Shown piece after piece: positions 9,342-12,647 of a stretch of DNA of 34,480 nt. Both the position numbers and the translations under genes were made by a program. Origin of the DNA: Lentisphaera sp. (GTDB lineage Bacteria > Verrucomicrobiota > Lentisphaeria > Victivallales > GWF2-50-93); NCBI GenBank assembly GCA_020721745.1, contig DYMC01000001.1, positions 1 to 34,480 of the forward strand, in the 5' to 3' direction. Within the stretch, counting starts at the first letter, position 1. Every line of letters starts with the position of its first letter. Below the pieces are notes generated by a model. It saw only the letters and a list, made by a program, of their open reading frames with translations. It had not been told where the DNA came from and did not search any database.

Positions 9342-9712
9342 GGCAGCTGGAAAGCAAGATCGAGCAGGACGCCTGCGACCTCGTGTGGAAGCACCTCGGG
9401 ATCATAGGTTCCAAGCTCGTTACGCCGGGCGACACGGGGTACCCAGACAGGATCTTCTGGCTGCCCGGTGGTCGTCCGTTGTTGATTGAGTTCAAGCGAC
9501 CTGGGGAAGAACTTGCGCCCAAGCAGATTTACATCCACACCCAGCTGAGAAAGTTGGGCTACCAAGTTGAGGTACATGACAATGCAATCCGAGCTTTTCA
9601 AGCCGTCATCGAAGCCGTGGCAACCACACGCCTATCAAAAGAAAGCCGTCAAGTTCTTGCTCGAGCACGACGCATCTGCGCTGTTCTTAGATCCGGGGTT
9701 AGGCAAGACTAG
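9338..9712 (+). CDS. VRR-NUC domain nuclease
   Basis: GYPDRIF...LLIEFKRPG...KQ...L..LGYQV pattern (PD...E.K active site of VRR-NUC). The 3' end overlaps the SNF2 gene by ~135 nt. Confidence 0.8.
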   Translation: MRQLESKIEQDACDLVWKHLGIIGSKLVTPGDTGYPDRIFWLPGGRPLLIEFKRPGEELAPKQIYIHTQLRKLGYQVEVHDNAIRAFQAVIEAVATTRLSKESRQVLARARRICAVLRSGVRQD

Positions 9713-11051
9713 TATCACGCTGGCCGCCATCAAGCTACTCAAGCAGAAGAAGCTGCTGGACAAGGTCCTGCTGATCGCTCCGCTCCGCGTCTGCTACAGC
9801 GTGTGGCCCAAGGAGGTCGAGAAGTGGGAGGACTTCAGCGGCATCCGTGTCTGCGTCCTCCACGGGCCGAACAAGGACGCGCTGCTCAAGACCGAGGCTG
9901 ACGTCTACGTCATCAACCCCGAGGGCCTTGAGTGGCTGCTGCAGGTTGAGAAAACCAAGACTGCCCAGGGTAAGACCAAGGTCAGCGTGGATATGCGCCG
10001 CTGGAAGCAGCTGGGTTTCGACACGCTGGTCGTTGACGAGCTGTCCAAGTTCAAGCACACGAACACCAACCGCTTCAAAGCGTTGAAGCTGGTGCTCAGC
10101 ACCTTCCGCCGCCGCTGGGGTCTGACAGGCTCGCCGGCATCGAATGGCCTGATGGACTTGTTTGGCCAGTGTTACATCCTTGACCAAGGTCGTGCGCTAG
10201 GTCAGTACGTCACCCACTATCGGATGAAGTATTTCGTGCCTAGCCATGACGGCTTCAGCTGGAACATCAGAGAAGGTGCCGAGCAAGAGATTTACGAGCG
10301 CCTGAACCCGCTCGCTTTGCGCATGGCGGCTGACGATTACCTCGACATGCCCACCTTGATCGAGAACAACATCCGGGTGGACCTGCCTGAGAAGATCATG
10401 GAAATGTACGACCGGCTTGAGAACGACCTGATCGCCAAGCTCGATGCCAAGGTTGTCGTGGCCAGCACAGCAGCGGCGGCTTCCATGAAGTGCAGGCAGG
10501 TGGCCAACGGCGGCATCTACCTCGATCCTGAGGTTGAAGCCCTGGTCAAGTTGCCCAAGTCCAAGCGTGAGTGGGTGAACCTGCACACTGAGAAAGTCGA
10601 TGCGCTGGCCGATCTGATCGAGGAGCTGCAGGGCTCACCCATTCTCGTGGCTTACGACTTCGAGCATGACCTCGATCGGCTCCGTGAGCGGCTGGGCAAG
10701 GACGTGCCCTACATCGGCGGCGGCGTGACGGCCAAGCGCTCGGCTGAGCTGGAGAAGGCGTGGAATGCTGGACACCTGCCTGTCTTGCTGGGGCATCCTC
10801 AGGCCATGGCCCACGGTCTGAACCTGCAAGAGGTGGGCAACCACGTCTGCTGGCACTCACTCACCTGGGACTACGAGCTCTATGATCAGTTCATCCGCCG
10901 GGTGCTGCGGCAGGGCAACAAGAGCAAAAAGGTCTTCGTGCACCACATCATGGCTCGTGGCACGATTGATGAGGCGATCCTAGCGGCTGTGAAGTCCAAG
11001 CGTCGTGGTCAGAATGCTCTGTTTGATGCGCTCAAAAAATTGCGCAAATAG
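9576..11051 (+). CDS. SNF2/DEAD-like superfamily 2 helicase
   Basis: HAYQKKAV, Walker A-like DPGLGKTS, DELSKFKH (motif II), and C-terminal helicase motifs (HPQAMAHGLNLQ, QFIRRVLRQG). The start may be 9582 (gagg RBS at 9569-9572). Confidence 0.9.
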   Translation: MTMQSELFKPSSKPWQPHAYQKKAVKFLLEHDASALFLDPGLGKTSITLAAIKLLKQKKLLDKVLLIAPLRVCYSVWPKEVEKWEDFSGIRVCVLHGPNKDALLKTEADVYVINPEGLEWLLQVEKTKTAQGKTKVSVDMRRWKQLGFDTLVVDELSKFKHTNTNRFKALKLVLSTFRRRWGLTGSPASNGLMDLFGQCYILDQGRALGQYVTHYRMKYFVPSHDGFSWNIREGAEQEIYERLNPLALRMAADDYLDMPTLIENNIRVDLPEKIMEMYDRLENDLIAKLDAKVVVASTAAAASMKCRQVANGGIYLDPEVEALVKLPKSKREWVNLHTEKVDALADLIEELQGSPILVAYDFEHDLDRLRERLGKDVPYIGGGVTAKRSAELEKAWNAGHLPVLLGHPQAMAHGLNLQEVGNHVCWHSLTWDYELYDQFIRRVLRQGNKSKKVFVHHIMARGTIDEAILAAVKSKRRGQNALFDALKKLRK

Positions 11052-11064
11052 TTGAAAATAGGTG

Positions 11065-11093
11065 TTTACAAGTCCATTGCGCCGCGCTAGAAT
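11065..11093 (+). promoter_or_regulatory. Sigma70-like promoter (TTTACA-N17-TAGAAT)
   Basis: tttaca at 11065-11070, a 17 nt spacer, and tagaat at 11088-11093, in the 85 nt gap after the SNF2 gene. Confidence 0.65.
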
Positions 11094-11136: not shown

Positions 11137-11538
11137 ATGACCAAGACCACCCAAGCTGACGCCGTCAAGTTCTACGCCCGCCGCGACTCCGCCACCGCGG
11201 TGCTCCGCAAAATGGGCGTCCACGCCCGCGACTACAACGCCTTCATCGAGGTGATGAGCGACGGCCAATTCGCCTGCCACATCGCTCGTGCTGAGATGTA
11301 CCTCGAGTCCCTGAAGAACCCCAAGCCTGCTGAGACCAAGGCCGCCAAGGCTGCGCGCCCCGCTGCTGGGACCAAGCGGACGGGCATCTCCGCTACGGCC
11401 CGGGCCCTGATCCTGGCCGGCAAGACCAACCAAGAGGTGTGGGCTGAGCTCAAGCAGCAGTTCGATCTTGACGATTCCAAGAAGCACTACCCCACGTGGT
11501 ACCGCTGCGAGATGAAGCGTAAAGGCCAGTTGGTCTAA
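11137..11538 (+). CDS. Hypothetical protein with an Ala/Lys/Pro linker and a conserved C-terminal domain (paralog of 11903-12544)
   Basis: C-terminal ISATARALILAGKTNQEVWAELKQQFDLDDSKKHYPTWYRCEMKRKG aligns by eye with the C-terminus of the 11903-12544 product. Confidence 0.7.
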   Translation: MTKTTQADAVKFYARRDSATAVLRKMGVHARDYNAFIEVMSDGQFACHIARAEMYLESLKNPKPAETKAAKAARPAAGTKRTGISATARALILAGKTNQEVWAELKQQFDLDDSKKHYPTWYRCEMKRKGQLV

Positions 11539-11548
11539 GGTGTCCGTC

Positions 11549-11677
11549 ATGAAAGTACGCGTCCATTATCGTGACGGCCGGGCCGTCGATTTCGTAGTGC
11601 ATAAGGACATCCTCGTTGTTGATTTCGCTGCGATGGCGAAGGTGCACGGCCAGATTCGTCGGATCGAGTTCCTATGA
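11549..11677 (+). CDS. Small hypothetical protein (42 aa), not in the supplied ORF track
   Basis: My translation: MKVRVHYRDGRAVDFVVHKDILVVDFAAMAKVHGQIRRIEFL. aagg lies 8 nt upstream. ATGA overlap with the next gene fills an otherwise empty gap. Confidence 0.4.
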   Translation: MKVRVHYRDGRAVDFVVHKDILVVDFAAMAKVHGQIRRIEFL

Positions 11678-11913
11678 TCAGCGATCCCAATAGCATTGAG
11701 ATTCGCGACGAGAGCACCGACGAGGAGCAGCGCTTCCAGCTCTACATCAATGGCGGTCCTCGCGCAATGCTCAGCAAGAAGCATGGCACCGTGCAATTCC
11801 ACTGGCAGGTCTACGGCCCACAATACTGGCCTGGGGCCAAGGTCCTGATGCAGGGCCTGCTGGAACTGTCGGTGCTGGCTGATCAACTATATGGAGAGAA
11901 GAATGGCAAGTAA
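11674..11913 (+). CDS. Hypothetical protein (79 aa)
   Basis: ORF coupled to both neighbours. No motif recognised. Confidence 0.6.
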   Translation: MISDPNSIEIRDESTDEEQRFQLYINGGPRAMLSKKHGTVQFHWQVYGPQYWPGAKVLMQGLLELSVLADQLYGEKNGK

Positions 11914-12544
11914 AAAACCAACGCCGGGCATCATCCCGTGCTATGACCGCCAGCGCCGCACCTGCATTCAGGTTGAGCGGACTGACACCCACGTGAAGTA
12001 CATCCCGCTCGACGTCAATGAGGGCCTGCAGGTTTTGACGGCGGCGGCAAACGAGTTCGACCAGTGGTATGAGCCGATGGTCAACTACCCCGCAGAGAAG
12101 GCGTGTCAGTTGTTCCTCAACTACAGCCAGACCATCGGGGCAACCAAGGAGGCCTTGGGTTACCTGGGCCAGATTGTTAACGTGTCTAAACAGGAGGCCG
12201 ATATGGCAACCACCAATAAGACTGCGGCGACTGAGAAGGCTGCCGCCACCAAGACCGCTGCGAAGAAGGTAGCTCCCGCAAAACCTGCCGCAAAATCTGC
12301 CGCCAAGACGGCTCCGGTCAAGACAGCTAAGCCTGCTGCAAAACCAGCGGCCAAGACTGGCGAGAAGAAGACGTCTGCAGCCCAGATGTTCCAAGACCTG
12401 ATCATGCAGGGCAAGCTGACTGACGACCAGATTTTCGAGAAGGTCCAAGCTCAGTTCGGTCTGGATGAGAAGAAGCGCGGGTACACAAAATGGTATCGGA
12501 ACTATCTCAAGAAACAAGGCATGAATCCTCCTGAGGCAAAGTAG
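11903..12544 (+). CDS. Histone H1/AlgP-like protein (KPAAK-type repeats) sharing a C-terminal domain with 11137-11538
   Basis: ATG at 11903 follows ggagag. Low-complexity TAAKKVAPAKPAAKSAAKTAPVKTAKPAAKPAAKT is followed by SAAQMFQDLIMQGKLTDDQIFEKVQAQFGLDEKKRGYTKWYRNYLKKQG. An in-frame internal ATG at 12203 has an aggagg RBS. Confidence 0.7.
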   Translation: MASKKPTPGIIPCYDRQRRTCIQVERTDTHVKYIPLDVNEGLQVLTAAANEFDQWYEPMVNYPAEKACQLFLNYSQTIGATKEALGYLGQIVNVSKQEADMATTNKTAATEKAAATKTAAKKVAPAKPAAKSAAKTAPVKTAKPAAKPAAKTGEKKTSAAQMFQDLIMQGKLTDDQIFEKVQAQFGLDEKKRGYTKWYRNYLKKQGMNPPEAK

Positions 12545-12647
12545 ATAACCAGCTGTTCAATCTTGAACGGTGTACGGCCTCTGAAAAAAACTCACTCCAC
12601 GCCTATAGAGTATTGGGTGTGGGCAACACACGAAAGAGGTAATCATC

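Follow-up and report, generated by a model that had tools for sequence, protein, structure and literature searches.

Within a 34,480-nucleotide (nt) stretch of DNA from a Lentisphaera sp. assembly (GCA_020721745.1, contig DYMC01000001.1, forward strand; referred to below as the window), two nearby genes encode proteins, here called P1 and P2, that share a C-terminal module of ~55 amino acids (aa) located behind a basic, disordered tract. The P2 gene probably also contains a nested, in-frame start from which a shorter protein, consisting of the tract and the module, would be made. We interpret P1 and P2 as non-structural paralogues encoded by a phage whose DNA probably contains modified cytosine. 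In this model each protein would have its own small folded N-domain, followed by the basic tail and the shared module, and the tail together with the third helix of the module would bind nucleic acid. For this reading taken as a whole (architecture, two products, nucleic-acid binding, and a tie to DNA modification), we estimate a probability of roughly 0.55. Both open reading frames (ORFs), 11137-11538 and 11903-12544, are present as described in a first-pass annotation of the window. The features on which the argument depends are the following, with predicted local distance difference test (pLDDT) scores from AlphaFold models and isoelectric points (pI) where relevant.

11137..11538, + strand: P1, ORF of 133 aa, pI 9.8
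P1 residues 10-60: N-domain, beta-alpha-alpha-beta-beta-alpha (AlphaFold, pLDDT ~90)
11323-11376, + strand: P1 linker, residues 63-80, disordered and basic (pLDDT <50)
11377-11535, + strand: P1 shared three-helix module, residues 81-133 (AlphaFold)
P1 residues 84-93, 98-109 and 118-128: the three module helices (pLDDT ~92)
11903..12544, + strand: P2 full length, ORF of 213 aa, 23.5 kDa, pI 9.5
P2 residues 1-100: N-domain, acidic (pI 5.3) and folded (pLDDT ~90 for residues 10-100)
12192..12197, + strand: internal Shine-Dalgarno (SD) sequence AGGAGG, with a 5-nt spacer to the in-frame ATG at 12203
12203..12544, + strand: predicted nested short isoform, Met101-Lys213, 113 aa, 12.2 kDa, pI 10.1, net charge +15
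12212..12367, + strand: P2 linker, residues 104-155, Ala/Lys/Pro/Thr-rich (87% A+K+P+T), net charge +11
12368..12541, + strand: P2 module, residues 156-213, with helices 159-169, 174-185 and 194-204 (pLDDT ~86)

The C-termini of P1 and P2 are certainly paralogous. A relationship had been proposed by eye, and formal alignment by BLASTP of P1 residues 78-130 with P2 residues 153-206 is significant (35% identity, 65% positives, E=5e-10). A profile built from an alignment of module sequences from both paralogue families matched just P1 and P2 (E=5e-35 and 9e-31) in the six-frame translation of the window. Both families share invariant I, L, K, Y, W-Y-R, and G residues. The third helix is basic and aromatic, with the pattern Y-x-x-W-Y-R-x-x-[LM]-K-K, in which K, Y, W-Y-R, and K-K do not vary in either family. 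The predicted short isoform would be made up of the basic tail and this three-helix module.

The first-pass annotation pointed to the ATG at 12203 as a possible nested start with a near-perfect ribosome-binding site. The codon is in frame, AGGAGG lies 5 nt upstream, and strong comparative evidence now backs the suggestion, since both the start codon and the SD are conserved across lineages. The calculated SD:anti-SD pairing at 12203 is -10.3 kcal/mol, the top value among 14 starts tested in the window and stronger than that of P2's own start at 11903 (-6.4 kcal/mol). Met101 is invariant in all 27 aligned genes, which are as little as 39% identical. Moreover, the codons that form the SD are fixed beyond what the amino acids would demand. 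K96 is AAA in 21/21 genes, although AAA is the minor Lys codon (27% gene-wide); Q97 is CAG in 22/22 genes, compared with 57% gene-wide; and E98 is GAG in 23 of the 27. The codons flanking the SD (V94, S95, L99, and A102) show free synonymous variation. Of the 35 cases with Ala directly after the internal start, 24 encode it by GCA or GCT, as compared with 41% gene-wide.

The pattern extends to distant relatives. All but one of 39 lineages have ATG or GTG as the aligned junction codon, and an SD core 4-mer is found 5-10 nt (mostly 6-7) before the start in each of the 38 lineages that keep the start codon. Positions -5 to -3 encode 27 different tripeptides across these lineages; retention of the SD core despite this diversity argues that it is the nucleotide motif, and not the peptide, that is conserved. 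GTG is the codon, and the SD is retained, in both homologues that have Val at the junction. The sole Leu homologue that was checked has CTC and lacks the SD; it carries two tandem modules, and the gene downstream of it is without a recorded Pfam match. For a quantitative comparison, divergent loci were fetched by the module pattern and the SD was scored in 36 representatives less than ~75% similar. In every one of the 36, at most 10% of the in-frame positions of the gene equal or exceed the junction SD in strength. The mean junction value is -7.8 kcal/mol, compared with -2.4 kcal/mol for 7736 other in-frame positions and -2.7 kcal/mol for 149 other in-frame ATGs (Mann-Whitney, p = 3e-21 and 3e-16, respectively; these p-values overstate the significance because the lineages are related and the loci were chosen for a locatable junction Met). 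Collectively, the start codon and its SD are conserved across diverged relatives to a degree beyond the need of the protein, as would be expected of a nested gene. We consider it probable that the nested start is functional, and we infer that the P2 gene yields two proteins, a 12-kDa product beginning (M)ATTNK... beside the 23.5-kDa full-length P2.

The nested start itself belongs to a well-known kind. In-frame nested phage genes with internal initiation include T7 gene 4A/4B, lambda C/Nu3, and phiX174 A/A*. As in these systems, one reading frame would be used, the inner start has its own SD, and the shorter product would lack the N-terminal domain; as in T7 4A/4B-type systems, the start signal is conserved among relatives. 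The proteins, however, are unrelated to P2, and the predicted P2 short form would consist of a basic tail and a small three-helix module. It offers a clean comparative case of one phage gene encoding two proteins, of a type that gene callers miss.

A second strong SD-like sequence, AAGGAGG, is present at 12146-12152, within a conserved G-A-T-K-E-A-L motif of the P2 N-domain. Initiation at the in-frame TTG at 12155 is unlikely because this codon is just 2 nt from AAGGAGG, and there is no other start-type codon nearby.

Could only full-length P2 be made? In this scenario the Met and the purine stretch would be protein-level features, such as helix packing on the N-domain or a conserved E-x-x-M-A-T-K-K peptide, or else the fossil of a gene fusion, and the SD-like site would at most be a pause site. 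Met101 indeed lies within a predicted helix (residues 96-117, pLDDT 72-86), and the Glu at -3 is invariant in 25 aligned genes, but it is replaced by Asp, Val, or Lys in several wider lineages. Some lineages also have Leu, Thr, Ala, or Lys instead of Met, and the gene with CTC and no SD persists. The nucleotide-level conservation described above, including the use of GTG in both Val variants, speaks against protein-level constraint, and a fossil site should not have survived in lineages with only 30-40% identity. We therefore regard production of full-length P2 alone as unlikely.

Rearranged relatives bear on the same question. In three loci (L073, L074, and L087), the homologue of the small upstream gene orf79 (see below) is fused to a sequence ...E-E-I-D-M-A-T-K-K followed by tail and module, while the P2 N-domain is missing. 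In L073 (2147-2689) and L087 (2147-2671), the fusion is in frame, and the P2 N-domain is deleted exactly up to the E-x-x-M-A junction; both keep E-x-x-M-A-(T/K) at the fusion point. In L037, a GC-rich relative, a separate gene encoding the module and a (KKPAA)n tail is located directly upstream of the methyltransferase gene, i.e., at the same genomic position. There the module comes first and the tail last, and the gene has its own SD and is preceded by an 85-nt spacer with a hairpin; the preceding gene encodes a second module behind an unrelated N-domain. The Met and the SD are kept in the L073/L087 fusions and in the separate L037 gene, and so packing against the P2 N-domain cannot be what requires the Met. 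That Met and SD travel with the cassette argues against a purely structural role for Met101. Several proteins, moreover, contain two or three tandem modules. Together with the L037 gene and the orf79 fusions, these proteins suggest that tail plus module is a unit that works in several contexts. Two short proteins that seemed to stand alone, P0244 (112 aa) and P0304 (100 aa), are products of gene calling at contig ends, where the internal ATG was chosen, and were discarded. In AXL3 gp34 (L034 2839-3486), an extra, very Lys-rich tail of ~60 aa follows the module. This protein, L037, and P0334 indicate that the basic tract can sit on either side of the module.

Searches for relatives returned 377 homologues of P2 and 285 of P1 at E<=1e-3, mostly on metagenomic contigs of 38-41 kb. 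The cultured relatives are Stenotrophomonas phage AXL3 and Pseudoxanthomonas phage PW916, in which the genes are annotated as hypothetical. AXL3 is a siphovirus. Its gp32 is the P2 homologue (46% identical, with an E-x-M-A-T junction) and gp34 the P1 homologue; both are uncharacterised. A megablast comparison with cultured phages gave only partial matches to neighbouring genes. An exhaustive search with the module profile recovered 1158 clusters (defined at 50% identity) at E<=1e-3, 654 of them at E<=1e-10. The proteins range from 52 to 495 aa, the module is usually C-terminal, and nearly all of them lack a known domain. When fusion partners were sought by scanning 149 family representatives with Pfam, only low-complexity HC2 (3), Extensin (1), and RA (1) matches were obtained. 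A literature search found no paper on the module family. P1 matches phrog_17205 (4.3e-6) and phrog_34102 (2.3e-4), P2 matches weakly (0.04), and other module proteins match module-covering PHROGs at 1.9e-11 to 5e-7; PHROGs 17205, 34102, and 38698 cover the module, with no function assigned in PHROG. By these comparisons, the module represents an undescribed and uncharacterised, mobile, phage-wide cassette family.

The fold class of the module is predicted to be a small three-helix bundle, similar to a helix-turn-helix (HTH). A three-helix core with a basic third helix is present in both paralogue models (pLDDT 86-92). The best compact neighbours in the Protein Data Bank (PDB) found by Foldseek are all of HTH or winged-helix type, although weak (E>=1.6): the TbiB1 RRE, the globular domain of histone H1.0, the TRF2 Myb domain, and the I-beta subdomain of MuA. 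The closest, the peptide-binding TbiB1 RRE, superimposes with a root-mean-square deviation of 1.6 Å over 52 columns and a probability of 0.90, yet at E=1.6. In size (~55 aa), helix number, and the basic/aromatic third helix, the module thus resembles HTH and Myb/homeodomain-like modules, and its occurrence in tandem, also behind a homing-endonuclease-like domain, recalls the DNA-binding units of homing endonucleases. It differs from all of these families in having no significant sequence or structure match to them. Similarity to an established HTH family did not reach significance (Mrr_N, E=0.02-0.04, below its threshold). The same holds for Pfam DUF6465 (PF20069; threshold 26 bits), which P2 matches at 17.7 bits (E=0.0038) and two homologues at 16-17 bits, and for which none of the 149 family representatives reaches E<=0.001. 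A PADLOC scan likewise returned nothing above threshold. Foldseek against BFVD retrieved only uncharacterised phage proteins, plus one labelled 'TolA' owing to its Ala/Lys/Pro tract.

Do P1 and P2 bind DNA? We infer, with the balance tilted modestly in its favour, that they do, because of the very basic tail, the basic/aromatic helix 3, the tandem modules, and the architecture of the homologue P0277. In the last of these, three modules follow an N-terminal region that matches PHROG 314 'homing endonuclease' (E=9e-6). An assignment of this region as a GIY-YIG nuclease, suggested by visual inspection, was unconfirmed by Pfam, NCBIfam, and PDB searches; P0277 is accordingly called homing-endonuclease-like, since PHROG 314 alone supports the nuclease. 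The weak HTH and winged-helix neighbours and the sub-threshold Mrr_N match lean toward DNA binding as well. If the module binds DNA, it would be an obvious candidate for linking modification enzymes, or host-versus-phage discrimination, to DNA in this phage group.

Alternatively, the module might be a protein-binding adaptor that docks on a partner of phage or host origin (such as RNA polymerase, the SNF2 helicase, or the methyltransferase or kinase encoded downstream), with the basic tail merely a flexible spacer. Strict adjacency to the methyltransferase gene, the lack of significant similarity to known DNA-binding folds, and the peptide-binding nature of the best small structural neighbour would all be consistent with such a role. 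A spacer is, however, hard to reconcile with the net charge of +11 on the tail, a placement of tandem modules behind a homing-endonuclease-like domain is typical of DNA targeting, and helix 3 contains many Lys, Arg, Trp, and Tyr residues. An adaptor function alone appears doubtful on this evidence.

The first-pass annotation also noted an Ala/Lys/Pro-rich tract ahead of the module in each protein. These basic, disordered linkers are real. The P1 linker is 83% A+K+P+T with a net charge of +4, and in the P2 model pLDDT is below 50 over residues 117-155. The length and sequence of the P2 linker differ among homologues. The P2 tract, described there as a long KPAAK array, has a biased composition but little regularity: Tandem Repeats Finder identifies only 2.3 copies of a 12-nt unit, at 12276-12303. 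Membership in the bacterial H1/AlgP/Hc2 class did not hold: P2 reaches 20.7 bits with the NCBIfam model hist_H1_lk_Burk (NF038053), whose cut-off is 80, the match being limited to residues 92-160, and P2 has no Pfam HC2 match at E<=1. Like Hc2 (PF07382), AlgP, and the Burkholderia H1-like proteins (NF038053), P1 and P2 have a Lys/Ala/Pro-rich, highly basic, and disordered tract. Unlike in those proteins, the tract is a variable linker between folded domains and not the body of the protein; an H1-type repeat array making up the bulk of the protein was not found, the P2 tract being 52 of 213 aa and barely repetitive. Judged by these profiles, the H1/AlgP/Hc2 likeness of P2 is compositional only.

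It had been proposed on this basis that P1 and P2 are histone-H1/AlgP-type nucleoid proteins that globally coat or remodel DNA. The composition of the linkers fits such a role, and 3 of the 149 representatives match Pfam HC2 through their tails, one homologue has a precomputed PF07382 match, and the NF038053 match, although weak, points in the same direction. All of these matches come from the low-complexity tract, with scores far short of the 80-bit thresholds. The tract is moreover short and variable, and it is the folded domains that are conserved. Global DNA coating is in our view improbable.

In many homologues of both families, the linker contains a short conserved motif, K-A-G-R-R-A-x-D-P-(V/E)-V, which the window's own copies lack (carriers include P0072, P0084, P0096, P0108, and P0113 in the P2 family and P0148, P0160, P0169, P0215, and P0230 in the P1 family). 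The P0242 linker has about nine copies of a related sequence, P-(R)-R-G-R-R-x-(A/S)-x-P-P. The motif may be an AT-hook-like minor-groove or partner-binding motif.

A tie to DNA modification is suggested by gene order. The window covers the replication and nucleotide-metabolism arm of a phage, with a primase, a family-A DNA polymerase, exonucleases, and a VRR-NUC-like nuclease. The features next to the P1-P2 region are as follows.

9567-11051: SNF2 helicase gene
11065..11093, + strand: sigma-70-type promoter-like site TTTACA-N17-TAGAAT, 10/12 consensus matches, downstream of the SNF2 gene
11540..11677, + strand: orf45, GTG start, abutting P1 and with an ATGA overlap with orf79
11674..11913, + strand: orf79, a small ORF with an 11-nt overlap with the P2 start
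from 12648: methyltransferase gene
from 13460: MazG gene
from 13846: gene for a deoxynucleoside monophosphate (dNMP) kinase-like protein

Sixty-nine loci were fetched via P2 or the module pattern alone (contigs of 12-82 kb, with SNF2 identities of 97% to 45%). In ~68 of them a methyltransferase homologue is found directly downstream of the module gene, only L096 being without such a match, and in most loci MazG, kinase(-UDG), and ThyA-like genes are located further downstream. P1 is less constant, and several distant loci have no P1 match outside the module region. The gene order of AXL3 is the same as that of the window. Of 37 restriction enzymes tried on AXL3 DNA, 35 failed to cut it, and the two that did cut have A/T-only sites (PMC7504290). 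The strict synteny lends real support to a link between P2-type genes and modified DNA, and by gene order it ties the 1158-cluster module family to a widespread predicted phage cytosine-modification pathway. As a cultured phage, AXL3 provides a tractable member of the group.

The first-pass annotation placed P1 and P2 in a promoter-driven unit of their own. The promoter at 11065 was found again and recurs in relatives: TTTACA-N17-TAnnAT is present in 27 of 31 related loci scanned, including AXL3. In most of these loci it follows the SNF2 gene as it does in the window, and L019-L022 and L068 lack it. The unit is not self-contained, however. P1, orf45, orf79, and P2 abut or overlap one another and therefore form one translationally packed unit. 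This packing, together with a gap between P2 and the methyltransferase gene that in relatives is often 1-20 nt, suggests that the promoter at 11065 probably drives one long operon. A scan of the window revealed no promoter- or terminator-like site on the + strand in 12545-12647; since no comparable promoter lies between P2 and the methyltransferase gene, the unit from 11065 probably continues into the modification operon. In the window this gap (12545-12647) is 103 nt, unusually long for the phage group.

How might these parts work together? In the model we favour, the P2 gene would give rise to a 213-aa protein from the ATG at 11903 and a 113-aa tail-plus-module protein from the ATG at 12203, in the manner of T7 4A/4B. 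The tail and helix 3 would bind nucleic acid, most probably double-stranded DNA, and the N-domain would supply a second activity, for instance oligomerisation or partner binding, so that the ratio of the isoforms would tune that activity. Because P2-type genes are the fixed first gene of a methyltransferase-MazG-kinase-hydroxymethylase operon, the proteins may act on or with modified DNA or the modification machinery. Such a functional tie, in its general form, is put forward tentatively, at somewhat less than even odds. More specifically, P2 and its short isoform could be dedicated handlers of DNA with hypermodified cytosine. As a platform, DNA-bound P2 would bring the methyltransferase-like and kinase-UDG enzymes encoded downstream to freshly synthesised phage DNA; as a reader, it would tell modified phage DNA from unmodified host DNA, a role analogous to that of T4 Alc, or of SPO1 TF1 on hydroxymethyluracil DNA. 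We consider this specific version unlikely; if it is true, the module would define a DNA-binding domain of a new, modified-base-aware class.

The same gene position also invites the suggestion that P2 and its short form are a sequence-specific activator/anti-activator pair regulating the operon they head. The HTH-like, three-helix module, the location of the gene first in the operon behind a conserved promoter, and the frequent use of long/short isoform pairs in regulation would all agree with this. No operator-like repeats were seen, though none were sought, and the tandem modules and many architectures suit a generic DNA-binding unit better. As nothing is specific to regulation, a dedicated regulator pair seems improbable.

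Several observations weigh against the favoured model of two nucleic-acid-binding P2 products tied to modification. Glu and Lys codons are purine-rich, and a conserved acidic/basic helix could explain part of the SD-likeness; likewise, Met101 lies in a predicted helix and may have a structural role. Inheritance of the replication and modification genes together, as one block, could be enough to account for the synteny. With respect to DNA binding, no solved or annotated DNA-binding domain matches the module significantly. Neither the P1 nor the P2 model gives a significant Foldseek match in the PDB (E>=0.1), and Pfam and NCBIfam scans yielded nothing above threshold, the NCBIfam matches all falling on the low-complexity tract. 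PDB sequence searches with P1, P2, P0277, and the module profile returned chance matches only: a tubulin H11-H12 segment, F..KFDLMYSKRAFVHWY (E=0.014), and a designed 'CAP repeat' protein. Finally, a single PHROG match underlies the nuclease assignment of P0277, as Pfam, NCBIfam, and the PDB gave nothing.

Of the remaining features, orf45 is kept in only some relatives, and Pfam and PHROG profile scans gave no family match for it. The start of P2 at 11903 is the conserved one; an upstream in-frame ATG at 11891-11893, which would give a 217-aa P2, is specific to the window and is CTG in relatives. The modelled P2 N-domain (residues 10-117) contains five strands and three helices, with pLDDT of ~90 up to residue 100 dropping to ~50 by residue 117. 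Some P2-type proteins of 340-400 aa have an extra N-terminal domain of ~130 aa (L025 2611-3627, L078, L090, and L092; P0245, P0264, P0329, and P0377), which by eye resembles a diverged duplicate of the strand-rich P2 N-domain.

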